Source: a virus (lineage: Duplodnaviria > Heunggongvirae > Uroviricota > Caudoviricetes). Taken from it: a stretch of 15,076 nucleotides of DNA. Shown here piece after piece: positions 1-15,076 of this stretch. The position numbers and the translations under genes were made by a program. A model generated the notes under the pieces. That model made no database searches and was not told the origin of the DNA. It saw nothing but the letters and a program-made list of their open reading frames with translations. Where the stretch lies: positions 1-15,076 of IMG/VR virus record IMGVR_UViG_2531839662_000027, one strand, 5' to 3'. Every line of letters starts with the position of its first letter. Positions within the stretch are counted from its first letter, which is position 1.

Positions 1-952
1 TTATTCAGCCTTAGCAAAAGTGGTCATAGTTGTTCCACTGAAAGTGAATGACCTGTCTGTAAGAGTAACATCCTGAATAGCAAAGTAATCGCCAACACCA
101 GCGCCATTTACATAAAACTCGAATATCTCAGATGTATTTTCCGGAATAATATTATTAGCAATATAACACGTAGATAAAGAACCATTTGTTGATGGTAAAG
201 TTCCAAATAGCGTTGCATCCGATGCAGCATATATCGAACTGCTTAAATAAATATTTATATCAACATTACTCTCATAAGTAACAATTAAGTACACCCGGTC
301 GTTAACCTTCCACCCTCTGTCTTTTATCTTAGTATTAAGTGATAGCTTGTTAGAACTAGGGGTCGTTACGGTATTAATGGTTATTTTTGCTCCTATTGAG
401 TTGTATCTGCTTCTGGTTACTGTATTACCAGTATTGTTCATTGTATAAAGGATTGCTCTGCTTTCTGCAAACGTCCTCATATTAATCTTGCCTAAACAAT
501 CTCCTTCCATAACTTGTGGGCCAGACACAGTTGCACCAATATAACAATTAGTAAATACAGCATGAGCCCTGTTGTCAGTGCTTGATGCAAGTAATGAAAG
601 TTTAAAGTTGCCCTGATCTGCAATCCAGCAACTATCAACCTTAACTACAGCATCATTGTCAAGAACAACAAACCTTCCTCCCTCATTGTAATATCCTACA
701 AAAGCATTTACACCGCTTATTTTTACTACTCCATCTGGAACCGTAAAGATATCGCCTTGTATCGCTTCGCCATAGTACCCGCCAACAATATTGGTCACTC
801 GGGTATTTAAGTACATGCCATGCCCAATGCCGAACTCAAGGTCACATCCAATTAAGCTTAAACCTTCAATAGGGGAAGTACCAGAAGCATAAAAGGCATA
901 TTCACCGACCTTATTTGATGCAAATCCACAGTTATTGAACGTTACGCGGTTG
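1..952 (-). pseudogene. Tailspike gene (P22 gp9-type), C-terminal portion downstream of the IS1 insertion; stop codon at 1-3
   Basis: ORF 1..966 (-) continues in frame from the 1719-2769 fragment once IS1 and one copy of the target duplication are removed; the residues encoded from 966 down to 953 come from the IS1 end. Repetitive Gly/Asn/Val-rich beta-strand-like composition is consistent with a beta-helix receptor-binding domain. Confidence 0.7.
945..952. repeat. Left copy of the 8-bp IS1 target-site duplication (CGCGGTTG)
   Basis: Identical octamer directly flanks both IS1 ends (945-952 and 1719-1726). Confidence 0.7.
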
Positions 953-966
953 GGTAGTGCATCCAA

Positions 967-1362
967 TTAGTAGAACATGTGTTTTTCGATAAACGCTCCG
1001 ATCACTTTTTCGTGGATCTCAACTGAGCGTGAGAAGCAGATTGTTTTACGAGCCAACCGCTTAATGCGGGTGCGTAGCGTCAGATTATTACGCTCAATGC
1101 GTTGGGTGAATATTTTGCCGGTCAGATGCTTATTCTTCGGCACCTCCCGGCCATAGCTGCCCCAGTCATCGCTGGTCAGCATGCCGATGTTGAAGGGTGT
1201 AAGCAGTGCCAGTAGCTCCCGGCACGTTTGATCGGTTCGGGGACCAAAAGTGTAGGCCAGTACACCGCCTGTTTTGGTGTTGTACGCGTACCAGAGCCAG
1301 TGTTGCCGGGCTTTACTGCCAACGTAGCTCCATTGCTCATCAAGCTCGCAGATAAGCGCCAC
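967..1362 (-). CDS. insB: IS1 InsB reading frame (normally expressed as InsAB' transposase by -1 frameshift from insA)
   Basis: Translation aligns by eye with IS1 InsB (motifs ELDEQW.YVG, YTQRIER.NL.LR, SFSKSVE.H.KVIG); lies directly downstream of insA in the -1 frame. Confidence 0.8.
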   Translation of the reverse strand: MALICELDEQWSYVGSKARQHWLWYAYNTKTGGVLAYTFGPRTDQTCRELLALLTPFNIGMLTSDDWGSYGREVPKNKHLTGKIFTQRIERNNLTLRTRIKRLARKTICFSRSVEIHEKVIGAFIEKHMFY

Positions 1363-1388
1363 ATCAGCATGGGCAACAGGCGAAGACG

Positions 1389-1661
1389 TTATTCGCTTTG
1401 GCGCGAGTTTTTTAAAGTCCGGATGACGGTGTTAATACCAATTTTCAGTGTCCTGGCGGTATCGCGAACCCCGGCACCATTAAAGGCCATTTCAGTTATC
1501 AGCTCTTTCATACCCGGCTTACGTGCTTGATAAGTATAAGTGAGCTGAAACACACGGTGGCAGTCACGGCAGCGAAATCTGTCACGGCCTTTAGGGTTCT
1601 GACCATGGCGGTAAACCTGAGCTGACTGACAACGGGGACAATGAATATTAACGCTGGCCAT
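1389..1661 (-). CDS. insA: IS1 InsA (zinc-finger transposition regulator)
   Basis: 90-aa protein with a CPxC...CxxC zinc-finger N-terminus and helix-turn-helix C-terminus, colinear with IS1 InsA (MASV.I.CP.C...); divergent from classical IS1. Confidence 0.85.
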   Translation of the reverse strand: MASVNIHCPRCQSAQVYRHGQNPKGRDRFRCRDCHRVFQLTYTYQARKPGMKELITEMAFNGAGVRDTARTLKIGINTVIRTLKNSRQSE

Positions 1662-1718
1662 GAGATAACCTCAAAAGCCCGTATTATACATCAGATTCAA
1701 CTAATTAGAGGCATCACC

Positions 1719-1726
1719 CGCGGTTG
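1719..1726. repeat. Right copy of the 8-bp IS1 target-site duplication (CGCGGTTG)
   Basis: Identical to 945-952. Confidence 0.7.
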
Positions 1727-2769
1727 TTAGCCCCAGCAAGGTGAACTCCGCGATTTGGCGCAGGAACAAAAGAACAGCAATCATAGGTATTAAGCCAGTC
1801 GTTTATAGTATAGAAGTTCGCCACCACGCCATTGATGAAACGACAATTATGGGTTCTTCCTAGGTGAACATATTGAATTCGGCAAGCATAGTTGGCGATG
1901 TTGTTCCCATCAACTGTAACGTGAGAGATAGATGTGCTACGTCTTATAGAGTCAGTTTCGTAGTACATGTTGACAACTGTCTCTCCAGTGAACCCACTCC
2001 CCGCAATAATGAATGACTTCTCAACGCCATCCCCGAATAGGTCAACAGTGCCTATTGTTAAATCAACTGGTGACTTAACATAGTAAGTTCCTGCAGGGAC
2101 AAACAGCCTCTTTCCTGCCGATAAAGCAACTGCTGCAGCAGCATTAAAGCTAGCTGAGTTATCTGCCGCTGGATCACCAGTAATGGGGAAAAATTGAGCA
2201 ACAGAAATATAATCTGCTACCGTCACTTCGTACCATGGCAAAGCAGGAGATGACGGAAGAGTGCCACTACCACCGGTGTAGATTTTATTATTATACCACC
2301 ACCAGTTATCAACATTAGATAACACCCCCTCCTGCCACACCCCCCCTAACGAGAAATCAAGACCGTAAGAAGTAGCTATCTGACTTAATGATAATGTTGC
2401 TCCTCTGTCAGAAGCTAATTCTTGCCTTAATTGGTCAGGGTCATACTTCAGCACATTAGGAAAATAGAACTGCTGTGCACCATACGCATCATAAACAGCC
2501 ATAGAATGGCCTTGCACAGTTACGAACTTGGCAATCTGTCCGTTATATACCGGATATCCAGCAGCGTTAATGATGATTGGTTGCGAAACAGGAACGTGAG
2601 AGCCGTCTTCGTTCTCCACATAAACCTGAATCTGGTTTTCAGGATTTACAGGGTCAGTGTCAATTTTACCGATATAAATTTTGCCATTGGCTACGGCTTT
2701 AAAAGAACGAGCCATAGTGAAGAGTTGCGAAGGCATGCTTACCACAACATTTGCGGTGATATCTGACAT
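1719..2769 (-). pseudogene. Tailspike gene (P22 gp9-type), N-terminal portion upstream of the IS1 insertion
   Basis: From ATG at 2769-2767 the protein starts [13 protein letters not shown]...[37 protein letters not shown]...[13 protein letters not shown]...NVLKYDPDQ, matching the P22 tailspike head-binding domain as I recall it ([13 protein letters not shown]...). The frame is cut one codon into the IS1 end. The track ORF starts 16 codons earlier at 2817; 2769 is preferred by homology. Confidence 0.8.
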
Positions 2770-2794
2770 TTCATTGCTCCAGACGAATGATATG

Positions 2795-2817
2795 ATGCAA
2801 CCATGATGTGGTTGCAT
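2795..2817. promoter_or_regulatory. Perfect 9-bp inverted repeat (ATGCAACCA-N5-TGGTTGCAT) in the mnt/tailspike divergent intergenic region; candidate repressor operator
   Basis: Arms 2795-2803 and 2809-2817 are exact reverse complements; sits between the divergent start codons of tailspike (2769) and mnt (2891); no T-run on either side, so a terminator is unlikely. Confidence 0.4.
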
Positions 2818-2890
2818 ACCGAAATGGTACTATTGAGTATTTATCCAGTGGGTTACGATGCCATTCCACCCAACTGGTGAGGCATCAAGG

Positions 2891-3151
2891 ATGTACAGCA
2901 AATACGACGATGCGCAGTTTCACTTGAGACTTCCGCATGAACTCCACGCGAAAATTAAACAGCGTGCGAAGATGAATAACAGGTCACTGAACTCAGAGAT
3001 AATTGCAGCGATTGAAGAATCATTGGCTAAACAAAGCTCTGCATCAGTTTACATTGACGATGCAGAGCGTATGGCAGAACAACAATCTGATATGGTTAAG
3101 AAAATTGTCTTTGATACGCTCAAAGAGATATATAAAAAAGACAGCAACTAA
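2891..3151 (+). CDS. mnt: Mnt-like ribbon-helix-helix repressor (Arc/MetJ family)
   Basis: Protein MYSKYDDAQFHLRLPHELHAKIKQRAKMNNRSLNSEIIAAIEESL...DDAERMAEQQSDMVKKIVFDTLKEIYKK resembles P22 Mnt as recalled (..NDAERLADEQSELVKKMVFDTLKDLYKK); P22-like synteny next to the tailspike. Start at 2891 preferred over the track start at 2858 by alignment and a GAGG 9 nt upstream. Confidence 0.7.
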   Translation: MYSKYDDAQFHLRLPHELHAKIKQRAKMNNRSLNSEIIAAIEESLAKQSSASVYIDDAERMAEQQSDMVKKIVFDTLKEIYKKDSN

Positions 3152-3168
3152 CCATCCGTGGCTTTCCG

Positions 3169-5014
3169 TTACTTCTGGTTATCATCACTGTTCATCCAGT
3201 ACATGATGCCTAGCCTTGATATGGTTTTCTTATCTGATTCTGGAAGTGAGTTGTAAAACGAGCGCCAAGCAGAAGAGCGTCTTACAGTTGTATCAACGAT
3301 GCTTTCTGGTGCTTGTTTTACTGCCAGCCTTGCTGCTTTCTGGAATTCTGGTGAGCTAATTAGCTTTTCTGCAGATTCAATTGATTCAGCGCCGCCCATC
3401 GCCCTGATTTTGCTGGCGACTTTTGCCCCAATTTCTGACCCAGCAACAGCACCTACTGCACTGAACGGTCCTGACACAGTTGAACCAACCGCAGTGCCAA
3501 TGCGTTGGGCATGGTTAGCAACAAATTCATTTGCCGCAGTGACGCGATTAAACCGTTTTACGAACTCGTTTAGTCTTCCTGTAGTTATCTCGTAAGATTT
3601 TGCGTCTTTGATAGCCTTTGCGACCTTATATACATCGTTCAGACCTGACATAGTCTCTTTTGGTAAATGTCGGGCAAGATTGCGCATCTGCCCGTTTGCT
3701 AACATGTTTTGATACCAGTCAGCAAACCCTGCAGGATTAAAATCAGCGCCACGTTTTCCGTTCGAAAGCATATCCCGAAGACCTGTTCCCAGTAGCTCGG
3801 TTCTTAGCTTCCTGGACGGCGTGTTTTGCATCAATTCACGAAATCCTTTGGCATCGCCTTTCGACATTGCCTGTAGTGCTGTAGTTGCTTTGCGAGAAAC
3901 ATCACCGTTCAGCGTTCTGCCAGTTAGATTAATCATTTGCTCTTCCATGCTTTTTCGCATCTGAACAAGCCTCTGAGCAACTTCAAAATCACGTAATGCA
4001 TTTGTCTCTGACAGCGCCGCCTTTTGATCATCGGCGAGCGAACCGTAAAGCCTCGATAAAGCAGCGCGATCAGCATCTTTATATGGTCCAGAATTCTTAT
4101 GAAGTGCATCACCAACAAGTCGTCGTTGCTTATTGAGATTTGCATAAGTTAATGCGCCGTTCTTGCCTGGATTAACTGCCCGAAAGACTCTCTTTTCAAT
4201 AGGGTCAAGGTTTTTCATCCCGCCAAGATCTTCTGCCACCTGTTTGAGCATTGACCTTGTTGATGGCGCATCAATTTTTGCACCTGCAGGCATCGCCTTT
4301 TCAACATTGCGATAAAGCTGGTCGCTTCGTTTCATCAGCGCAGACATTCTTCCATTGACCGTATCAATAAACTTGTCGCTCATACCAAGAGCATCTTTTG
4401 CACCGGAAACGCGATCAATTATCTCCCCCGCGCCCTGTGCTAGCTGCCTGATTGCTTCATTTTCCTGCACCTGTAGAGCAGAACCCGCACGGGACTTGAT
4501 TGCTTGCTCAACTGCCTTGTATTGCTCGTTCCCGGAAAAGTGTGAAGGGAGTAATGAATCAACATTAAGCCTTTCAGCAGACTCCAGAACTTCAGCCTGA
4601 GGATTGATATCTAGTTCATCAAGCGATGAAGCGAGATTTGGCCTTTTTTGTGCTGCTACTGTGCGAACGACTTCCTCTGGGTTCCTCGTCGCAGGCGTCA
4701 TTGGTACACCTTGTGCTACTCTTGCCTCTGCGGCATGAACCGCAGGATTTGTTGCTGCAGCGGCATCACCGGAGAATGGTGATGTTTCTGTTGGCGCCGT
4801 GGTCGCTCTCTGTGCAGATGTTTTATTGCCACTAATTATATTTGATGCACCACGAACACCACGGGTAACGCCATTTATCAGGCCATGCGTAGCAATGTTA
4901 AGTCCGGCATTAATAGCGGCATTTTCGGCAAAATCACCCCGTTGATTCGCCGCGTCAGCGAGAGAACCAATGACCATGTTTCCAGCTACACCTGCTCCAG
5001 GAACAAGATAACCG
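3169..5014 (-). pseudogene. Ejection (injection) protein, P22 gp16-like: portion downstream of the IS629 insertion
   Basis: 602-codon frame joins in frame to the 6325-6713 fragment when IS629 plus one CCG copy is removed, giving about 743 codons; last gene of the gp7-gp20-gp16-like series before mnt/tailspike. Confidence 0.55.
5012..5014. repeat. Left copy of the 3-bp IS629 target-site duplication (CCG)
   Basis: CCG immediately flanks both IS ends (5012-5014, 6325-6327); a 3-bp duplication is typical of the IS3 family. Confidence 0.55.
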
Positions 5015-5068
5015 TGAACCGCCCCGGAAATCCTGGAGACTAAACTCCCTGAGAAAGAGGTAAACAGG

Positions 5069-5395
5069 ATGACTAAAAATACTCGTTTTTCCCCCGAAGT
5101 CCGTCAGCGGGCGATTCGTATGGTTCTGGAAAGTCAGGATGAATATGACTCACAGTGGGCGGCAATTTGTTCCATTGCCCCAAAGATTGGCTGTACGCCG
5201 GAGACTCTGCGTGTCTGGGTTCGCCAGCATGAGCGGGATACCGGGGGCGGTGATGGTGGGCTCACCAGCGCTGAACGTCAGCGTCTGAAAGAGCTGGAAC
5301 GTGAAAATCGTGAACTGCGCCGCAGTAACGATATCCTTCGCCAGGCTTCCGCTTATTTTGCGAAGGCGGAGTTCGACCGCCTCTGGAAAAAATGA
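5069..5395 (+). CDS. IS629 OrfA (helix-turn-helix, leucine-zipper transposase N-terminal part)
   Basis: 108-aa ORF, IS3-family OrfA architecture; sequence recognised as IS629 OrfA. Confidence 0.9.
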
Positions 5396-6282
5396 TGCCA
5401 CTGCTGGATAAGCTGCGTGAGCAGTACGGGGTCGGACCGGTATGTAGCGAACTGCATATTGCCCCGTCAACGTATTACCATTGTCAGCAACAGCGACATC
5501 ATCCGGATAAACGCAGTGCCCGTGCGCAGCACGATGACTGGCTGAAGAAAGAGATACAGCGCGTATACGATGAAAATCACCAGGTATACGGTGTGCGTAA
5601 AGTCTGGCGTCAGTTGTTACGGGAAGGTATCAGAGTGGCCAGATGCACTGTGGCACGTCTCATGGCAGTTATGGGACTTGCCGGTGTTCTCCGGGGTAAA
5701 AAGGTCCGCACTACCGTCAGCCGGAAAGCCGTTGCCGCAGGCGACCGCGTAAACCGTCAGTTCGTGGCAGAACGACCTGACCAGCTGTGGGTGGCTGATT
5801 TTACTTACGTCAGCACATGGCAGGGCTTCGTCTATGTGGCGTTTATCATTGATGTGTTTGCCGGATACATCGTGGGGTGGCGGGTCTCATCGTCTATGGA
5901 AACGACATTCGTGCTGGATGCGCTGGAGCAGGCGTTGTGGGCCCGTCGTCCGTCTGGCACCATCCATCACAGCGATAAAGGCTCTCAGTATGTGTCACTG
6001 GCCTATACGGAGCGACTAAAAGAAGCCGGATTACTGGCATCAACAGGGAGTACAGGCGACTCGTATGACAACGCGATGGCTGAGAGCATCAATGGTCTTT
6101 ACAAAGCGGAGGTAATACACCGTAAGAGCTGGAAAAACCGTGCAGAAGTGGAACTGGCCACACTAACGTGGGTGGACTGGTATAACAATCGACGATTGCT
6201 GGGAAGGCTGGGCCATACTCCTCCGGCAGAAGCAGAAAAAGCTTATTATGCTTCCATCGGAAACGATGATCTGGCAGCCTGA
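5392..6282 (+). CDS. IS629 OrfB (DDE catalytic domain; expressed as OrfAB by -1 frameshift)
   Basis: 296-aa ORF overlapping orfA by ATGA; integrase-like DDE region (..[16 protein letters not shown]..). Confidence 0.9.
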
Positions 6283-6324
6283 GTTCACAGATAAAACACT
6301 CTCCAGGAAACCCGGGGCGGTTCA

Positions 6325-6327
6325 CCG
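6325..6327. repeat. Right copy of the 3-bp IS629 target-site duplication (CCG)
   Basis: See 5012-5014. Confidence 0.55.
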
Positions 6328-6713
6328 CCTATTGACTCTCCAGCTTGCGCGTAGGGGTCTGTCGGTCTGTCTACTGGACGATAAACATCATCCAATACTT
6401 TTGGCCCCCCAAGCCCCTGACTGATTGCATTAATCAGACTTGCGCCACCCTGCAATACGTCAAATGGTATGTTTACCAGACCACGACCAGCCTGTTCTGC
6501 AATTTGCCCTGCACTTTGACCACCAGTGAGCCAATCGCCAGCTTGTTGCATCAATGATGGTTCTTCCCGTGTTGGTGCATTATTGGCCTGATTAACTGTT
6601 TGTTGCTGAACAGCCTGACCAGCAAAATACTCATCAATGGCGGTGCCAATATCTTCGGTGCTCGTACCATCAGGGAAGGTAAATGTCTTACCGTTTGCAG
6701 TTACTTTCATCAT
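6325..6713 (-). pseudogene. Ejection protein gp16-like: N-terminal portion upstream of the IS629 insertion
   Basis: Start ATG at 6713-6711 overlaps the stop of the upstream gene (ATGA coupling); native coding runs to 6325, and the last 13 codons of the track ORF (6285-6323) are read from the IS629 end. Confidence 0.55.
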
Positions 6714-8116
6714 TCCACCGTAAATTGAATGCCTGATTTTGAGGTATATGATCCAACCTGATTCCTTGGTTCTCCTGAAGGTGTCGAATCTTGTGCTGGC
6801 GCTGCGTCAGTATTCATTGACATATACCGCTTAACGGCACTCCCCAATGATTCACCTTTTTTAACATCCAACCCCAATATCTGACCGCCATTACGCGATT
6901 GTCCTGGATTGCCATTCGCGCTCATCCACTCGGCTTTAAACTCATTAAACTGCGCGTTTCGTCGCTCAAGGTTTGCCATCGCATCAAGCCATCTTGCGAC
7001 CGTCTCAGGGTTATCCATGTCAGTTGGCGCACCCTGTCGAACGATCTCAACGTCTTTATCCGTTGCTGGGCCGGGAGGTAGGAATTTAAGAACCTGACTG
7101 TTAACAAGGGCATTTTGGCGAATGCGCAAATCACGCAATGTTGTATCGCTTCCGGTAAGTTTTGCGAACATGTTCTGTGCGTTACCGAACAAACCTGTCG
7201 TTGGTTTTTCTGCTCTGAACTGTTGAGCAAGCGCACTCATAGAATTGGCTGAGTTTGATGATGCTGTAGCATTGTTTACAGCCGTCTCGATGCCTTTTTC
7301 CATGTTTACTGACAGCTTAGGTGCTTCGCTAATCAACTGCTGAGCCTTTTCCTGCGCTTGCTGCATCTTAAACCCGAACTCTTGCTGATCCAGAGCCAAG
7401 CGTTGTGCTGCGATATTGTGCCCTGTCATTGCTGACTGATAGGAAAGGTTTTGCCCTCTCGCCTGAAGTGCCTCGCCAGCCTGATTGCTGCGGATTGTCT
7501 CTGCCAGCCTGCCTCGGTCAATCTCACGACCAGCCATCTTGTCCTGAACATTGAAGTAGTCAATCGGACCGAGAGCAGCCATCCCAAGGTGATCAACAAA
7601 CTCACCAAATCCTGAAGGATTCTGCTGATACATCTGAGCAACGCTGTTAGGGTCAACACCGACGCGAGTCAGTTCCTTGGCGTTGTTTTGCAGCCATGAT
7701 TGCATTGCTTCTGGAGACGATGACGCAAGGCGTGCGCCAGCCGCTAAGGTGCCGATAGAATTGCGCTGGTCTTCATCAATGAATCCCATGCCTTTACGAA
7801 CGGATTCAATCTGGTCTGGATATTGAGTAGCCAACTGACGCAAAGCACCGCGATCACCAGACGCATAAGCATTAGCGTACGCCTGCTGAAATTCTTTCTG
7901 CCGCTGAGCCTGCTTTTCCTGCTGAAACACCCCTGCAATGCCTGAAAGGCCTTGCAAAGCAGTAAGCCCAACATTGTTAGCGCCTGAACGCTCAATATCA
8001 TTGTTCTGCCTGATAAGCTGAAGCGTATTGCCGATGTCATTTACGCTCGGAGCGTTTGAGTTGACGCCGCCGATACCAGCTAACAATCCGCCATTTGATC
8101 CTTGCCAAGTAGCCAT
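6710..8116 (-). CDS. Ejection (injection) protein, P22 gp20-like, 468 aa
   Basis: Size nearly identical to P22 gp20 (471 aa as recalled), Gln/Ala-rich helical composition, position between the gp7-like and gp16-like genes, translationally coupled at both ends. Assigned by synteny and size, not by a verified alignment. Confidence 0.6.
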
Positions 8117-8125
8117 GATTACCCC

Positions 8126-8504
8126 TTAAAACAACGAGCCAAGCAATCCGATACCAGCACCAATGCCAGCGCCCCAAGGTGTTGATGTTCCCAAAAGGCT
8201 GGCAAGACCTGCACCGGCAATCGCACCAGACGTTCCGCCACTAATTGCTGTCTGAAGACTTGATGGTTTGTTGGCATTAGCAGCGGCAAGAGCTGCGCTT
8301 TGCTGTGCAATGCTGCTCATGTTGTTGGCGTACGTCTGCCCGGCGTTTGCCTGACCTTGCAGAGCACCAAGCCCAACGTTTGCCAGATTGTTGTAATTGC
8401 TCATCTGGTTTGATAACCAAGACTGACCGAGAGTCGGCGCGATCGTAGCCAGTTGATTGCTTGTGGCTGTCGAACCAAGTCCTCCCGTAACCGCGAGGCA
8501 TCGA
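8126..8504 (-). pseudogene. 3' fragment of a gp7-like ejection protein gene, 5'-truncated at the deletion junction
   Basis: The open frame runs into cro-derived DNA in a frame different from cro; the first 17 codons of track ORF 8126..8554 are cro DNA read out of frame, so no native start or RBS remains. C-terminus is Gly/Ala-rich and hydrophobic. Confidence 0.45.
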
Positions 8505-8582
8505 CTATACGCCGAGATCTTTAGCTGTCTTGGTTTGACCAAAGCGCATTGCATAATCTTTCAGAGTTATGCGTTGTTCCAT
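8505..8582 (-). pseudogene. cro: cro, truncated after codon 25 by a deletion junction
   Basis: Minus strand reads CATGTACTAAGGAGGTTGTATGGAACAACGCATAAC...AAAGATCTCGGCGTATAG: lambda cro RBS and first 25 codons (MEQRITLKDYAMRFGQTKTAKDLGV), then a stop where lambda has TAT CAA AGC; sequence 3' of 8505 is unrelated to cro. Confidence 0.8.
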
Positions 8583-8606
8583 ACAACCTCCTTAGTACAT
8601 GCAATT

Positions 8607-8676
8607 ATTATCACCGCTAGAGGTAAAATAGTCAACACGCACGGTGTTAGATATTTATCCCTTGCGGTGATAGATT
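8607..8676. promoter_or_regulatory. Lambda-type right operator: oR1 (8609-8625), oR2 (8633-8649), oR3 (8656-8672), with pR (minus strand) and pRM (plus strand)
   Basis: 17-bp operators TATCACCGCTAGAGGTA, CAACACGCACGGTGTTA and TATCCCTTGCGGTGATA match lambda oR1/oR2/oR3 with one change in oR1; pRM-like TAGATA (8648-8653) and TAGATT (8671-8676) precede a leaderless cI ATG at 8683; pR -35/-10 read on the minus strand at 8635-8630 and 8612-8607. Confidence 0.85.
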
Positions 8677-8679
8677 TAA

Positions 8680-9396
<717 letters not shown>

Positions 9397-9403
9397 CACG
9401 TAA

Positions 9404-9841
9404 ATGATTAAAGAACGTATTTCTTATATCATTCCGATTGCGATGGATGAAGGCAACCCCGTAACTCCAGTTCTTATCTATGAAATGGATAAAGACTCCC
9501 ATGAAGTGGATCTGTCATTTGGCGCTTTTTTTATCGGCCTTAAGGCTACAAAAAAATATTCCATAGGCATTGAGGTTTTCAATGCTCAAGAAATACCGAT
9601 ACCAATTGACACAAAACTGTACTCCAACCATAAGTTTTTTACGGTAGCAGAAGCCAACGATGGAGAAACCATCGTATCAACTTCTATGAGAATTAACTTC
9701 CCAAGGGTGAAAATTATCAAGCCTGGGATATTCGAAGTTAGAGCATCACTGGTTAATCCTGAGAAAGGCGAAGTAATTGATGTAAAAAGTTCGTTTTTTG
9801 ACGTGAAGATAACAGGATCAGTTCGCGATGAGTTTAGATAA
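9404..9841 (+). CDS. Hypothetical 145-aa protein in the rex position (first gene of the cI-linked module)
   Basis: ATG 7 nt after the cI stop, no terminator between; no transmembrane segment evident; AT-rich; no similarity to RexA that I can recognise. Confidence 0.6.
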   Translation: MIKERISYIIPIAMDEGNPVTPVLIYEMDKDSHEVDLSFGAFFIGLKATKKYSIGIEVFNAQEIPIPIDTKLYSNHKFFTVAEANDGETIVSTSMRINFPRVKIIKPGIFEVRASLVNPEKGEVIDVKSSFFDVKITGSVRDEFR

Positions 9842-10199
9842 CAAGGTTGCTCAGCTTCGTCCAAATCAAAACATATCTCGCCCAATTGGACACTATTCCA
9901 CTGATGATGCATACTCACGGCATGGTGGAGGAAACGGCGGAGGTAACATGCTTGAGGCTAGAGTTGCAAAGCTAGAGTCTGATGTTGAATACATCAAGCG
10001 CGATCTCGCTGAGGTAAAGTCAGATATAAAATCTGTTGATTCTCGTCTGTCAGGTATTGAGACAAGCATTAGCTCAGCAAAAACCACCATTAAGGCATCT
10101 GCGGTCGTTGTCAGTTTCGTGTTCGCATTTTGCGCCTACATTTTTGGAAGTTATGTTTCCAAAATCCTTGATGCCTTAAACGGACTCGTTCTTAAGTAA
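9828..10199 (+). CDS. Hypothetical small membrane protein (123 aa, or 80 aa from the internal start at 9958): Gly-rich linker, coiled coil, C-terminal hydrophobic segment
   Basis: Overlaps the previous ORF by 14 nt; heptad-like LEARVAKLESDVEYIKRDLAEVKSDIKSVDSRL; hydrophobic AVVVSFVFAFCAYIFGSYV; internal ATG at 9958 is preceded by GGAGGTAAC; a strong terminator follows. Confidence 0.6.
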   Translation: MSLDNKVAQLRPNQNISRPIGHYSTDDAYSRHGGGNGGGNMLEARVAKLESDVEYIKRDLAEVKSDIKSVDSRLSGIETSISSAKTTIKASAVVVSFVFAFCAYIFGSYVSKILDALNGLVLK

Positions 10200-10206
10200 C
10201 ACACAA

Positions 10207-10233
10207 CCCGGCCTCAGTGCCGGGTTTTCTTTG
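10207..10233 (+). terminator. Rho-independent terminator ending the cI operon (t-imm equivalent)
   Basis: Perfect 6-bp GC stem CCCGGC/GCCGGG with 6-nt loop followed by TTTTCTTTG, directly after the second rex-slot ORF. Confidence 0.7.
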
Positions 10234-10383
10234 CCTCTCGATCCCCCTTCCCAACAACACATAACCATTTGTATTTATTGGAAAACTAATAGATACAACT
10301 TGCTAAACAGTGCAATTCTGATCCCTCACCTACCTAACAATTCACCCCTGCAAAAAATAAATCCATATAAAAAACATACAGAT

Positions 10384-10446
10384 AACCATCTGCGGTGATA
10401 AATTATCTCTGGCGGTGTTGACACAAATACCACTAGCGGTGATACT
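10384..10446 (+). promoter_or_regulatory. Lambda-type left operator and pL: oL3 (10384-10400), oL2 (10404-10420), oL1 (10428-10444); pL -35 TTGACA (10418-10423), -10 GATACT (10441-10446)
   Basis: AACCATCTGCGGTGATA, TATCTCTGGCGGTGTTG and TACCACTAGCGGTGATA match lambda oL3/oL2/oL1 as recalled; 17-bp spacer between -35 and -10; oriented toward N. Confidence 0.85.
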
Positions 10447-10491
10447 AAACACATCAGCAGGAAGCTGGAAGCCAAACGGAACAGATTGGCA

Positions 10492-10526
10492 TGCTCTTTA
10501 ACTTCGATGGGGCGCTGACAAAGCGC
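10492..10526 (+). promoter_or_regulatory. nutL site: boxA (TGCTCTTTAAC, 10492-10502) and boxB hairpin (GCGCT-GACAA-AGCGC, 10512-10526), P22 type
   Basis: boxA-like motif followed 9 nt later by a 5-bp stem/5-nt loop hairpin whose sequence matches the P22 boxB as I recall it; located between pL and the N-like gene. Confidence 0.7.
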
Positions 10527-10645
10527 AAACAGATACCAAACGAGATGGGTTTGGCGGTGATGTGAATTGCAGCAGTAACGACAGCAACCAGAAGATCAGC
10601 ATCTGGCGCATCACCACCAAAGCTATTTCACATGAGGAAAACATC

Positions 10646-10954
10646 ATGACGGTAATCGTGTACGGAAAATCAACATTTGCAGGAAATGCCAAGACTCGCC
10701 GTCATGAGCGGCGCAGAAAGCTGGCCATCGAGCGTGATTCCATCTGCAACATCATCGATTCGATCTTCGGCGCAGACAGTGAGGAGCCTGTTCAGGAAGC
10801 CCCGAGAAAACGTTTAAGCCTTTCTGAAAAAGCAATATCACTCGGAATCCTTCGCTGCAAGAAGGCAGATGAATGCAGTGGAAGTATTTGCCTGCCAAAC
10901 GTAGCCATTTACGCGGCAGGCTACCGGAAATCAAAACAACTGACGGCGAGGTAA
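10646..10954 (+). CDS. N: N-family transcription antiterminator, P22 gene 24 type
   Basis: Arginine-rich motif GNAKTRRHERRRKLAIERD near the N-terminus matches the P22 N RNA-binding peptide as recalled; ATG at 10646 preceded by GAGGA; first gene after pL/nutL. The track ORF from 10562 is an upstream in-frame extension, judged not used. Confidence 0.8.
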   Translation: MTVIVYGKSTFAGNAKTRRHERRRKLAIERDSICNIIDSIFGADSEEPVQEAPRKRLSLSEKAISLGILRCKKADECSGSICLPNVAIYAAGYRKSKQLTAR

Positions 10955-11182
10955 GTGATGAATCAGACATACATTCCATCATGCTTGAGAAATCTGCCAA
11001 AGCAGAAAGCAAAGCCCCGCAAGCAAGCCATAAAGGACGCTAAGGCAGAGGTTATTGATCAAGCAATACAATTGCTCAGGGAGGAGTTAAGAAGTGGCAA
11101 GCTCGAAGGAATGATGATGCCCTATCAGCGCGGATATCTATCGGCGATTAGTAAGTTGGAAGTACTGAAGAGTGAATTATGA
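10955..11182 (+). CDS. Hypothetical 75-aa basic/helical protein
   Basis: ORF starting GTG-ATG immediately after the N stop (coupled); no recognisable motif. Confidence 0.45.
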   Translation: MMNQTYIPSCLRNLPKQKAKPRKQAIKDAKAEVIDQAIQLLREELRSGKLEGMMMPYQRGYLSAISKLEVLKSEL

Positions 11183-11244
11183 ACTATCTGGAATTTCCGG
11201 ATGGTTCATTGTTTTGGCAGCAAACCACTTATTTGAGGTGATAT

Positions 11245-11331
11245 ATGGAAGAAGAATTTGAAGAGTTCGAAGAGCATCCTCAGGATGTGATGGAACAATA
11301 CCAGGACTATCCTTATGACTACGACTATTGA
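11245..11331 (+). CDS. Possible micro-ORF encoding a 28-aa highly acidic, aromatic peptide (MEEEFEEFEEHPQDVMEQYQDYPYDYDY)
   Basis: ATG preceded by GAGGTGATAT; the 3' end overlaps the ral start by 17 nt; below the ORF-track length cutoff. Confidence 0.3.
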   Translation: MEEEFEEFEEHPQDVMEQYQDYPYDYDY

Positions 11332-11515
11332 TAAAAATCAATGGTGTGGACAATTCAAGCGATGCAATGGATGCAAGCTGCAATCGGAATGCATGGTTAA
11401 ACCTGAAGAAATGTTTCCTGTAATGGAGGATGGGAAATATGTCGATAAATGGGCAATACGAACGACGGCAATGATTGCCAGAGAACTTGGTAAACAGAAT
11501 AACAAGGCTGCCTGA
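11315..11515 (+). CDS. ral: Ral, restriction alleviation protein (66 aa)
   Basis: Translation MTTTIDKNQWCGQFKRCNGCKLQSECMVKPEEMFPVMEDGKYVDKW... matches lambda Ral as I recall it; expected position in the pL operon downstream of N. Confidence 0.8.
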   Translation: MTTTIDKNQWCGQFKRCNGCKLQSECMVKPEEMFPVMEDGKYVDKWAIRTTAMIARELGKQNNKAA

Positions 11516-11574
11516 TGGTGGCCTTTGTTTTTTGGCCGTAAATAATTTCATGCTTATTACAATCAAGGGGATAT

Positions 11575-11820
11575 ATGGAAGAACAAGCAAACAAGATTCT
11601 CGTAGAACTACTGCAAAAAGCCAGTAATGGAATAGACGCGGCTGTTTCATTTAGCCAGGCACAGATTCCTGATGTCATCCATCAGCTTTTGATGTGGCAC
11701 GCCGTATCATCAGCTGGAATTCAGGCTACATGGTCAGACGAAGAATTCATTCGTCAGATGAACAAAATGCTCAATCAGCACAAAGAACAGGAGAAAGATG
11801 ATGATTCTGACTCTGAATGA
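11575..11820 (+). CDS. Hypothetical 81-aa protein with a strongly acidic C-terminal tail (EQEKDDDSDSE)
   Basis: ATG preceded by AAGGGGATAT; overlaps the next ORF. Confidence 0.5.
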   Translation: MEEQANKILVELLQKASNGIDAAVSFSQAQIPDVIHQLLMWHAVSSAGIQATWSDEEFIRQMNKMLNQHKEQEKDDDSDSE

Positions 11821-12109
11821 TAAGCGTGAAATATCGCAAATAATCGCAAGTTTTACTGATGAAGATTACGAGCGAATCAACAGTGAAGTTGATCGTCTCT
11901 GCAAACGTTGCGACCCAATAAGCGAAATGCTTCGCTCATATAAACCAGATGAACACACTAAGGACGCTATCGACTGGCTGGAAGATGATGACTGTAACTA
12001 TCAGGAAAAAGCCGCTGAATGGTTCTGGGATGCAATAACCGAAAGAGTTAAGGCTGAATATGCCTTCGCAATATTCAAACGCAGACACATTTATGGAGAA
12101 GCAGCATGA
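11798..12109 (+). CDS. Hypothetical 103-aa acidic protein
   Basis: ATG preceded by GGAGAAAG; ATGA-coupled to recT downstream. Confidence 0.5.
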   Translation: MMILTLNDKREISQIIASFTDEDYERINSEVDRLCKRCDPISEMLRSYKPDEHTKDAIDWLEDDDCNYQEKAAEWFWDAITERVKAEYAFAIFKRRHIYGEAA

Positions 12110-13017
12110 GCAATATCGTTGAATTCGTTAAACAGCAGGAGCAGTTATTCTGCGGAGCATTGACTGAACAGACGGTGACATGGGCTAAGGAAAGCCAGTT
12201 TGCAATTCAGTATTTCCAGAAAAATGATTACCTGGCTAAAACGGCACTGGCAAATCCAACCAGCGCACAGAACGCCATCATCAATGTTGCGGCGATCGGC
12301 ATCACCTTAAACCCGGCTAGCAAACTGGCTTATCTGGTTCCGCGCGACGGCATGGTGTGCCTTGATATCAGTTATATGGGATTGCTCCATATTGCAATGG
12401 AGTCTGGTGTTATCTCATGGGGTCAGGCAAAACTTGTTCATGCTAACGATACCTATGAGTCAAACGGGCTTGATAAAGCACCAACCCATAAATACAACGC
12501 CTTCGGTGATCGTGGTGATATCGTTGGCGTTTACTGCACAGTTAAGACGCCAGCAGGTGATTATCTAACGGAAGAGATGAGTCTGGCTGAAATTGAGGCT
12601 GTAAGGAAAACAAGCAAGGCGGCATTCAGCGATAAAGGACCATGGGTAAATCACTGGAATGAGATGGCGCGAAAGACGGTCGTAAAGCGTGCAAGCAAGT
12701 ATTGGCCTAAGGCATCACGTCTTGATAGTGCTATTCACGTACTAAACGAAGAAGAAGGTGTGTGGACTGAACCAGTTATGCCGCACAAATCAGAGGAAGA
12801 TATCCGCGAAGATGAACGGAAACGCCAGCAGGAAATAACGGATAAAGCACAACTTCTTTGTGATGAAATGGATCAGGCAGAAAACATGGATGATTTGAAG
12901 CGATATTTTGCAGAAGCATATCGCCTGACATCTGGAATGAAATTGCAGCAGAACGTACAAGCCATTTACATAGAATGCAAAGCGAAACTGGAGGTTGCCA
13001 GTGAGCAAACTGTATGA
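12106..13017 (+). CDS. recT: RecT-family single-strand annealing protein
   Basis: Conserved block GPWVNHWNEMARKTVVKRASKYWP resembles the RecT signature (GPWVTHWEEMAKKTAIRRLFKYLP in Rac RecT as recalled); size and position typical of a phage recombination module. Confidence 0.8.
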   Translation: MSNIVEFVKQQEQLFCGALTEQTVTWAKESQFAIQYFQKNDYLAKTALANPTSAQNAIINVAAIGITLNPASKLAYLVPRDGMVCLDISYMGLLHIAMESGVISWGQAKLVHANDTYESNGLDKAPTHKYNAFGDRGDIVGVYCTVKTPAGDYLTEEMSLAEIEAVRKTSKAAFSDKGPWVNHWNEMARKTVVKRASKYWPKASRLDSAIHVLNEEEGVWTEPVMPHKSEEDIREDERKRQQEITDKAQLLCDEMDQAENMDDLKRYFAEAYRLTSGMKLQQNVQAIYIECKAKLEVASEQTV

Positions 13018-13483
13018 AATTGCCAATGAATACGCAAAATTGATGGATTCAGATTTAGAACCAGAGATGATTGCTGACACAATAGAAGGCATGGAAGGAG
13101 AATTTACCGATAAAATAGAGCAACTTCTTTCCGTCATTAAAAATGAATCTGGTTATGCTGAACGCCTCAAGGAAGAGGCAAAGTCACTGAATGAGCGAGC
13201 CGCAGTAATTCAAAATAAGATTGACAGCATCAAATCATATATAGCGTCATCGCTTGAAATGGTTGGCAAGAAAAATATTCGAGCAGGTATTCACCAGGTA
13301 ACAATCCGCAAACCGTCAGAAATTGTAGAAATCATCGACTCAAGCGCCCTTCCTCCTGAATACGTTGAGTTCGAAACGACAATTAAAGCCGACAAACTGG
13401 CAATCAAACACCAACTAAAAGCAGGAATAAATATCCCCGGTGCTCAACTCAAAGTTGGGAAACCTTCACTTCTTATCAAATAA
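13001..13483 (+). CDS. Sipho_Gp157-like protein (recombination-associated partner of RecT)
   Basis: Pattern LYEI..EY..L...LEPE...DT.EG.EGEF..K.E.........Y.....EEAK.L.ER...IQ.KI...K.Y.....E.VGKK.I......V.IRK.....VEIID...LP.EYV.......KADK.AIK..LKAG..IPGA matches the Gp157 family as I know it. GTG at 13001 with GGAGG 6 nt upstream preferred over the track TTG start at 12995. Confidence 0.65.
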   Translation: MSKLYEIANEYAKLMDSDLEPEMIADTIEGMEGEFTDKIEQLLSVIKNESGYAERLKEEAKSLNERAAVIQNKIDSIKSYIASSLEMVGKKNIRAGIHQVTIRKPSEIVEIIDSSALPPEYVEFETTIKADKLAIKHQLKAGINIPGAQLKVGKPSLLIK

Positions 13484-13494
13484 CGGTATCGCCT

Positions 13495-13809
13495 ATGAAA
13501 AAGACTCCATGGGAGAAATGGGAAGTCGATTTCTTGCGCGAAGTAGCGGCGACAATGCCAGTTGAAGTTATTGCTGAAAAACTGGAAAGGACTGAAAAAG
13601 CAGTAATGGCGAAAGCAACAAGGATTGGCGCTGACATTGTTAGCCGACTTCGTGGAAGACGATGGACAAGAGCCGAAGTATCACTTTTCGGTAAGTTCTC
13701 CGCAGAAGAAATAGCAATTGCAACCTGCCGCTCAATTTATTCAGTAAGGGCTATGCGATACAAGCTAAAAAAACTCGATGAAGAAAGAGCAGGCATACGA
13801 ATAAATTAA
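13495..13809 (+). CDS. Hypothetical 104-aa protein with two internally repeated helix-rich halves
   Basis: Halves [39 protein letters not shown] and [39 protein letters not shown] share a W-x2-EV-x-F ... A/S-V-x-A-x-x-R spacing. Confidence 0.5.
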
Positions 13810-13825
13810 CAAAGAGGAATTTACC

Positions 13826-13993
13826 ATGAGAGGACTTGCATACAATCCCGGCATTCTTCCGGCAGAAATGATTATTCGCCAACGCGTAAAGCCAATGCCA
13901 TCGAGAGAGGAATTGCTAAAGAGAAAGAGTTTCGGTTCTGTTAATGACAACAAATATCTGAATGCGATGTGGCGTAAAGGAGGCAAGCAGTGA
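13826..13993 (+). CDS. Possible small ORF (55 aa, basic)
   Basis: ATG preceded by AAAGAGGAA at good spacing; below the ORF-track cutoff. Confidence 0.3.
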
Positions 13994-14295
13994 GTAATTC
14001 CGCACGACTACAGCTTGGTTTTTCACCGCTATCAAAAACTATCATGCTGGCAAAAATGCGCGATGTTGAAGGTGGACGTATGCGCGTTGGCAATGATCCA
14101 GGTCGTGATGCACGAAGAAAAGACAATAACAATCCTCGCACTCGCGGGGATTTCTTTTATCTGAACTCGCTACGGCGGGTTTTGTTTTATGTAGATGATA
14201 AATGCACTTCAGAGTCACAGGTGAATGGAATGGAGAGCCATTCAACAGAGTTATCGAAGCAGAGAACATCAACGACTGCTATGACCACTGGATAA
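13990..14295 (+). CDS. Doubtful ORF (GTG start, 101 aa, low-complexity Arg/Asp/Asn-rich)
   Basis: Open frame only; competing antisense ORFs; composition not protein-like in places. Confidence 0.2.
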
Positions 14296-14357
14296 TATGG
14301 GCGCAGATAGCACATGCAGACATAACCAATATTCGAATTGAAGAACTGAAAGAACAC

Positions 14358-14383
14358 CAAGCCGCCTGATGGCGGTTTTTTTA
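14358..14383 (+). terminator. Rho-independent terminator
   Basis: AAGCCGCC-TGAT-GGCGG stem-loop followed by TTTTTTT (14376-14382). Confidence 0.65.
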
Positions 14384-14396
14384 TTGGAGACAAGAA

Positions 14397-14741
14397 ATGT
14401 CAGATTTGGCTATGAAGGTTTTGAAATGGCAATCGACTGGCGATGTTGGCATCAGTAGCGCAACTCTTGCCTCAATCGCATGTGGACTGAAAAAGAATAT
14501 CTATGGTCATAGCTTCGGTGCTCCACATGACGCAGCCGATTTCCGACGATGCGTTGCGCTTGTCGAGCAGATTCCAGAAATCAGAGATTCATTCGACAAG
14601 GTTGCAAAGCGCGTTCCGGCATTCAAAGGCATCCTCAACGAATGGGATTCTCTCGTTGCTCTGTTGAAGTCTGAAATGAAGATACACGGAAACAAAGCGC
14701 CAGAGACTTACAGAAGAATCAGCGAGCTACGCAAGGACTAA
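14397..14741 (+). CDS. Hypothetical 114-aa protein
   Basis: ORF beginning 14 nt after the terminator T-run; no recognisable motif. Confidence 0.5.
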   Translation: MSDLAMKVLKWQSTGDVGISSATLASIACGLKKNIYGHSFGAPHDAADFRRCVALVEQIPEIRDSFDKVAKRVPAFKGILNEWDSLVALLKSEMKIHGNKAPETYRRISELRKD

Positions 14742-14743
14742 CT

Positions 14744-14839
14744 ATGGAATCACACGGCCTCACACTCGATGAGGCCTGTCAGTTTCTCAAGATATCCAGA
14801 CCTACCATCGCCGCATCAATGCGGTTTTTTATTACCTGA
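14744..14839 (+). other. 31-codon ORF whose first 24 codons look like the helix-turn-helix start of an excisionase/AlpA-type protein, ending in a terminator hairpin; possible gene remnant
   Basis: MESHGLTLDEACQFLKISRPTIAA resembles the N-terminus of AlpA/Xis-type proteins and the core of the ORF at 14876; the remaining codons run into a hairpin plus T-run. Confidence 0.3.
14811..14833 (+). terminator. Rho-independent terminator-like hairpin
   Basis: CCGCA-TCAA-TGCGG followed by TTTTTTATT. Confidence 0.5.
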
Positions 14840-14875
14840 TTTGCAGGTTCGATTCCCTATTCGGAGATAGCACTC

Positions 14876-15076
14876 ATGCAACACGAACTACAGCCTGATT
14901 CCCTGGTTGATTTGAAATTCATCATGGCTGATACTGGCTTTGGTAAAACCTTCATCTACGACCGGATTAAGTCCGGCGACCTGCCAAAAGCCAAAGTTAT
15001 CCACGGACGAGCAAGATGGTTATATCGTGACCATTGTGAATTCAAAAATAAGCTCTTAAGCCGCGCCAATGGGTAA
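14876..15076 (+). CDS. Excisionase/AlpA-family small DNA-binding protein (putative Xis), 66 aa
   Basis: Core L.FIMADTGFGKTFIYDRIKSGDLPKAKVIHGRARWLYRD..EF fits the AlpA/Xis winged-helix pattern; position at the distal end of the pL operon, where int would follow beyond the window. Confidence 0.55.
   Translation: MQHELQPDSLVDLKFIMADTGFGKTFIYDRIKSGDLPKAKVIHGRARWLYRDHCEFKNKLLSRANG

Follow-up and report, generated by a model that had tools for sequence, protein, structure and literature searches.

What has split the gene for a gp16-type ejection protein in a P22-like prophage remnant of Escherichia coli, and does the break matter to that remnant? The remnant lies in the IMG/VR record IMGVR_UViG_2531839662_000027 (Caudoviricetes), and the stretch analysed, positions 1 to 15,076 of that record, is referred to here as the window. 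All 15,076 of its 15,076 nt form part of contig AFAB02000119.1 in the draft genome of E. coli 2.3916 (GCA_000194535.2). Its two insertion sequence (IS) elements aside, the window is 100% identical to the chromosome of the porcine enterotoxigenic E. coli (ETEC) strain UMNF18 over all 12,996 alignable bases. We conclude, at a probability of about 0.93, that an intact element of the IS629 group (isoform IS1203) transposed into codon 130 of the gp16-type gene of an Sf101-like Lederbergvirus remnant in E. coli 2.3916. Coordinates throughout are window positions; the interrupted gene runs on the minus strand and the transposase of the 1310-bp element in the opposite direction, on the plus strand. 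Genome surveys covered 5,426 complete E. coli genomes, and the metagenome survey covered contigs of the Joint Genome Institute (JGI). The parts of the locus, with the basis for each assignment in brackets, are as follows.

3169-5014, minus strand: 3′ part of the gp16-type gene, codons 130-743 (list of open reading frames, ORFs, and reconstruction)
5012-5014, no strand: left copy of the target-site duplication, CCG (read from the sequence; single CCG in empty alleles)
5015-6324, plus strand: complete IS3-family element, IS629 group (IS1203 isoform), 1310 bp (length, ends, identity to annotated copies)
5015-5039, no strand: IRL, the left terminal inverted repeat, TGAACCGCCCCGGAAATCCTGGAGA (end comparison)
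5069-5395, plus strand: orfA, 108 aa, with an HTH_Tnp_1 domain at E = 2.4e-12 (domain search)
5350-5466, plus strand: ALIL pseudoknot, Rfam RF01497, predicted -1 frameshift signal for OrfAB (119.2 bits, gathering score 50)
5392-6282, plus strand: orfB, 296 aa, with HTH_21 and the rve DDE integrase core, rve at E = 1.1e-27 (domain search)
6300-6324, no strand: IRR, the right terminal inverted repeat, ...TCTCCAGGAAACCCGGGGCGGTTCA (end comparison)
6325-6327, no strand: right copy of the target-site duplication, CCG (read from the sequence)
6325-6713, minus strand: 5′ part of the gp16-type gene, codons 1-130 (ORF list and reconstruction)

The decisive evidence for an insertion comes from exact empty-site alleles. 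With 5015-6327, i.e. the element together with one CCG, removed in silico, the minus strand reads through an ORF of 2232 nt, made up of 743 codons and a stop and free of internal stops; the insertion point lies after gene nt 389, within codon 130. A first-pass annotation, made from the letters of the window by themselves, had proposed this in-frame rejoining of about 743 codons together with a 3-bp CCG duplication, and both proposals held. Taken alone, the frame test is weak and unable to confirm the duplication, because a 3-bp duplication keeps the frame either way: the frame is equally open with both CCG copies left in place. Moreover, a repeat of 3 nt is expected by chance at 1 in 64. The empty sites are therefore what the argument turns on. 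The 40-mer predicted for the uninterrupted gene, CTCCAGGAACAAGATAACCG joined to CCTATTGACTCTCCAGCTTG with one CCG, has exact matches in E. coli PigCaeca_1 and LS45, the empty junction recurs in 5 metagenome or run contigs, and in 48 of the 5,426 complete genomes one match spans 80% or more of the site as reconstructed without the IS (600 nt). The restored protein is identical at 742 of 743 residues to the 743-aa LS45 protein WP_312019125.1, the sole difference being P203A; LS45 thus offers an uninterrupted full-length match, unlike the interrupted allele of the window. A 4-bp duplication (ACCG) is formally readable, the last base of the IS being an A, while a 3-bp duplication goes with the canonical 1310-bp element; with CCG on both sides and one CCG in the empty alleles, its size falls in the 3-4 bp range of the IS629 group.

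The element itself is complete. Its boundaries read ...GATAACCG / TGAACCGCCCCGG...CCGGGGCGGTTCA / CCGCCTATTG..., and the ends TGAACCGCCCCGG and CCGGGGCGGTTCA form a perfect inverted repeat over 13 of 13 nt, with 22 matching positions among the first 25 nt. Imperfect inverted repeats of ~25 bp that begin 5′-TG and end CA-3′, in an element about 1310 bp long, are the form of end found in the IS629 group of the IS3 family; a repeat search returned 26-nt arms at 88% complementarity, as the flanking G and C pair by chance. The product of orfA is a partial match to the NCBIfam IS3 family transposase, and the exact orfA sequence is found on at least 1000 contigs. The start of orfB overlaps orfA at ATGA, and its product scores 316.9 bits against NCBIfam NF033516 (IS3 family transposase; cut-off 160), with rve_3 matched as well. 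The ALIL match extends over the full model (1-117) and spans both the ATGA overlap and an A6 run; for related copies, the NCBI Prokaryotic Genome Annotation Pipeline (PGAP) records a 'programmed frameshift' and an AL1L pseudoknot. Ends, domains and pseudoknot thus bear out the IS3-family element with inverted ends and orfA/orfB that the first-pass annotation had described, and the element looks intact and, by this anatomy, competent for transposition.

Its name can be given at two levels. Over its full 1310 bp the element is 100% identical to a second copy on the UMNF18 chromosome and to copies in other porcine strains, and 99.0% identical to copies in O157:H7; a group member is expected to share 90-95% or more of its DNA sequence with a named reference. 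All of these copies carry the PGAP name 'IS3-like element IS1203 family transposase', and one submitter labels the exact OrfB 'putative transposase for IS629'. IS1203 is regarded as an isoform of IS629, in which sub-types are 4-5% apart (Rump et al. 2011, PMC3271280). Going by sequence identity, the earlier designation as IS629 is correct at the level of the isoform group, and the nearest label for the isoform is IS1203, the PGAP name on a copy that is 100% identical.

How such an element would move is known from the general biology of the IS3 family. Frameshifting by -1 at the A6 run, assisted by the ALIL pseudoknot, would produce the OrfAB transposase, which would then carry out copy-out/paste-in transposition via a circular intermediate; staggered target cuts of 3 bp, once filled in, would leave the CCG duplication. 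In its length of 1310 bp, its TGAACCGCCCCGG termini, its orfA and orfB of 108 and 296 aa with their ATGA overlap, its ALIL pseudoknot, its 3-bp duplication and its location in prophage DNA, which the group prefers, the element resembles the IS629/IS1203/IS3411 group; nothing structural differs, and the insertion site alone is particular to the strain. Work by Ooka in 2009 is said to have described prophage genes of E. coli O157:H7 that IS629 has inactivated. The IS629 prophage insertions of O157:H7 likewise share with the present one the IS group, a duplication of 3-4 bp and a bias toward prophages, 62% of the copies in O157 genomes lying in prophage or prophage-like DNA (PMC3271280). In contrast to those cases, the host here is porcine-ETEC-like and the target is a P22-like remnant rather than a lambdoid Stx or Sp prophage.

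The identity of the target follows from its position and its sequence. On the minus strand, a gp7 remnant (P22_gp7), gp20 (Inj_translocase), the target, arc and the tailspike gene follow one another as 7-20-16...arc...9 do in P22, so that the target takes the place of P22 gene 16 (609 aa), with the homologues of genes 7 and 20 ahead of it and arc and the tailspike gene behind it. Proteins of the P22 gp16 type are packaged in the virion, ejected, and form a trans-envelope conduit for DNA. The restored protein was blank in local Pfam and NCBIfam scans, a result that is uninformative, as the local Pfam copy lacks PF26808 and P22 gp16 is blank in it too; PHROGs and direct BLASTP were used in their place. 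phrog_770 ('DNA transfer protein') matches residues 1-696 (E = 4.6e-162) and P22 gp16 itself (5e-265), in both cases over nearly the full length, and a precomputed Pfam record, PF26808 (Phage_P22_gp16), exists for both gene fragments. By BLASTP, residues 2-185 align with residues 1-189 of P22 gp16 at 75% identity (E = 2e-89), while residues 186-743 gave no significant pairwise match to P22 gp16 residues 190-609. Instead, residues 31-743 are 99.0% identical to residues 199-911 of Sf101 gp13, a 'transglycosylase' of 911 aa whose additional N-terminal lytic transglycosylase module of ~170 aa is absent from the window protein; with 743 aa, the restored protein is also longer than P22 gp16 with its 609 aa. 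These comparisons support a target that is gp16-like by position and sequence, with a C-terminal part of Sf101 type. The first-pass reading of a gp16-like gene therefore stands for the gene order, phrog_770 and residues 2-185; over the remainder, the protein is pairwise unlike P22 gp16.

The insertion splits the gene into a 130-aa stub with a 12-aa tail from the IS and a 602-aa ORF that lacks a start context of its own, and the result is therefore a null allele. The standing ORF on the 5′ side (6285-6713) runs 12 more codons into the IS end, giving a chimeric 142-aa product that is recorded from a single contig, as the E. coli 2.3916 protein EII47548.1. On the 3′ side, no ATG occurs between the IS stop and Met142 at 4977, the first ATG past the junction, from which the 602-aa ORF (3169-4977) begins. 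Because the IS matches another copy in the sister strain at 100% identity, and only 1 of 743 residues separates the restored gene from an intact allele, the insertion is, by this measure of divergence, recent. Probably no phenotype is to be predicted from it.

The occupied site is particular to this one strain. Its left IS junction, where the 24-mer CCAGGAACAAGATAACCGTGAACC lies, was found in 0 of the 5,426 complete E. coli genomes and in 0 JGI metagenome contigs. Other gene calls of 602 aa were considered as shared insertions and rejected, since the metagenome contigs concerned have the empty site and an unrelated frameshift upstream: in the ENA ERZ272355xx and Logan SRR7533037 contigs, the exact 602-aa ORF accompanies a frameshift in a divergent N-terminal module, within the first ~400 nt. 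E. coli PK5074 (NZ_CP072802.1; 3472-5400 of the locus examined) has the same gene interrupted independently, by an IS629-like element of 96.5% identity at the equivalent of window position 4801/4802. There, early-left genes (tolA-like, cIII, kil) stand in place of gp20, gp7 and the upstream part of the gene, which, judged from the gene order, is a deletion adjacent to the IS; PK5074 also has an IS1 beside its tailspike fragment.

UMNF18, otherwise identical to the window, does not have a clean empty site. At 7221-7271 of the locus examined (from NZ_AGTD01000001.1), the equivalent of window 5012-6334, it reads ...GATAACCG-TGAACC-ACTCTCC...: TGAACC, the first 6 nt of IRL, is kept, and the right flank has lost 10 nt, CCGCCTATTG, among them the right CCG. 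Relative to the window this amounts to a net deletion of 1314 bp, and the gene is therefore called 'frameshifted' in RefSeq. As read from these few retained bases, the scar points to an IS at the same site in the UMNF18 lineage too. One may ask if 2.3916 and UMNF18 show this site before and after a natural, imprecise excision of IS629, of the type that the IS-excision enhancer (IEE) promotes. When IEE acts on IS629, some products are precise and others carry larger deletions, and IEE has been reported as common in ETEC. We regard such an excision as a doubtful prospect; an assembly collapse, in which the 2011 assembly of UMNF18 joined contigs broken at the repeat, is more likely. Microhomology, looked for as a signature of end joining, was absent from the UMNF18 scar. 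In E. coli 272 (NZ_CP018239.1; 2035-5708 of the locus examined), an IS1203-family copy splits a gene of PrimPol type whose annotation reads 'TOTE conflict system archaeo-eukaryotic primase domain-containing protein'; from its domain type and context, this is likely the IS-excision enhancer gene.

No observation speaks against the insertion as such. Two points limit the account given here: the occupied site stands in one assembly only, absent from all 5,426 complete genomes and from the JGI contigs, and the isoform name derives from PGAP labels and the label of one submitter. The former invites the question of whether the draft assembler misplaced a multicopy IS in 2.3916, given that the window comes from the draft contig AFAB02000119.1, that the near-identical UMNF18 record lacks the IS, and that no other genome surveyed shares the occupied site. 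A misplaced repeat would not, however, produce base-perfect termini and a duplication that matches the single CCG of the empty alleles, and the independent UMNF18 assembly holds 6 nt of the left IS end at this very place, without 10 nt of true flank. We therefore consider such an artefact very improbable. That the allele instead reached this strain in its interrupted state, either carried in by the prophage or acquired from another strain through recombination, would agree with the high mosaicism of P22-like prophages and with a lambda-type attR by bio on the source contig, which suggests recombination between prophages. Yet a donor with an occupied site is found neither in the complete genomes nor in the JGI metagenomes, and copies resident in the same clone match the IS exactly. 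Import, which we judge improbable, would in any case affect only the place of transposition and leave the feature itself unchanged.

It could further be asked whether the split is functional, the stub or the 602-aa ORF being expressed and retained for the benefit of the host, and the IS acting as a source of regulatory signals. A PR-like promoter at 8635-8607 on the minus strand faces the cro-gp7-gp20 remnant and the stub, and the 602-aa ORF is free of further mutations. This undecayed state is explained by recency, the flanks being 100% identical to UMNF18; promoter and terminator scans around the junction did no better than on shuffled sequence, with 6 promoter-like matches found and 6.7 expected; the 602-aa ORF is not preceded by an ATG anywhere between the IS stop and Met142; and the arrangement occurs in no other strain surveyed. 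A retained function of this kind has next to no likelihood. A transposition of the intact IS629-group element into the gp16-type gene is the best account of the locus.

The insertion is one of several lesions in the remnant, three parts of which bear on how the break in the gp16-type gene is to be valued.

953-1718, minus strand: second IS, IS1 family, 766 bp, inside the tailspike gene (duplication, domains, annotated copies)
6710-8116, minus strand: gp20-type ejection protein, intact, 468 aa (Pfam Inj_translocase, E = 1.1e-77)
8126-8554, minus strand: gp7-type ejection gene, 3′ fragment, profile positions 110-230 of 230 (domain search)

The last 121 codons of the gp7 homologue are fused to a fragment of cro at about 8508-8582, the deletion junction as a whole taking up 8489-8582; the UMNF18 annotation likewise has gp7 'missing N-terminus' and 'Cro/CI ... 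missing C-terminus', and the alignment to the complete phage Sf101 ends at window position 8488. Missing at this junction is the equivalent of ~20 kb of Sf101, which in that phage holds cII, the replication, nin, Q, lysis, terminase, portal, scaffold, coat and head-completion genes and the 5′ part of gp7. Measured against Sf101, this deletion is the main lesion in the decay of the prophage. Because ~20 kb with the Q, lysis and head genes of complete relatives are lost, no virion would be possible with or without the IS. The deletion also removes the late antiterminator region of complete relatives, so that the surviving late genes would be left without their late-transcription region. Both IS insertions may therefore be neutral, in DNA that was already useless. 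The PR-like promoter described above now faces the truncated cro, the gp7 fragment, gp20 and the gp16 stub.

By comparison, the left operon is mostly intact, with the repressor (LexA family, 237 aa), an N-like protein, Ral, RecT and others. The first-pass annotation had taken the immunity and pL-operon genes to be intact; this is right for the repressor, the N-like protein, Ral and RecT, but cro is truncated, and so is a gene of the DUF7446 family in the left operon (13990-14109), whose C-terminus is missing according to the UMNF18 annotation. Therefore, not every early-left gene is intact. The broader picture drawn there, of decaying structural functions alongside retained lysogeny genes, survives overall, although the main cause, the ~20-kb deletion, had gone unmentioned.

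The further suggestion that two IS families had each split one virion gene proved sound, with an IS1-family element in the tailspike gene and the IS629-group element in the gp16-type gene. The former is bounded by an 8-bp duplication, CGCGGTTG, at 945-952 and 1719-1726, and its product has Zn_ribbon_InsA, HTH_Tnp_IS1 and DDE_Tnp_IS1 domains; copies 99.5-99.9% identical to it are annotated 'IS1 family transposase'. Elements of the IS1 family are about 768 bp long, have insA and insB′ with a frameshift, and make a duplication of 8-9 bp; its 766 bp, 8-bp duplication and domains place the element in that family. Its ends, GGTAGTGCATCCAATTAG..., are presumably unlike those of the classical IS1 of E. 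coli K-12. Bovine and porcine strains hold many copies of it, a single genome having as many as 40 or more matching pieces. UMNF18 has a clean empty site here and an intact tailspike gene (664 aa); the IS1-family element therefore either came later than the IS629-group element or entered only the 2.3916 line.

The two strains also part ways at the tailspike-side end of the prophage. On the 2.3916 contig, just past window position 1 (16714-17126 of the locus examined), the tailspike end of the remnant gives way to ~100 bp of the 3′ end of intS and then to the P-arm and core of a lambda/434-type attP; ybhB-bioA-bioB-bioF then follows the att core, which makes this an attR at att-lambda. UMNF18 has intS-argW-yfdC in its place, and the opposite end, torI-dsdC, is the same in both strains. 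The same att arm is carried by the P22-like phages Huey and JEP4. This odd end suggests a recombination between prophages or an inversion, involving argW and att-lambda, or else a mis-join.

For the biology of E. coli, the locus is a case of routine prophage decay by a common IS of the species, and it holds no new biological feature. What it adds is one more strain-specific IS629/IS1203 locus, a possible clonal marker for the porcine lineage of 2.3916 and UMNF18. For annotation, the two 'hypothetical protein' calls EII47548.1 and EII47509.1 can be merged into one IS-disrupted gp16-type pseudogene, and the 'frameshifted' gene of UMNF18 in RefSeq is tied to the same IS site. The significance is thus mostly that of bookkeeping, with the possible natural IS-excision scar as a minor exception: if that scar were real, the insertion would be older than the split of 2.3916 and UMNF18.

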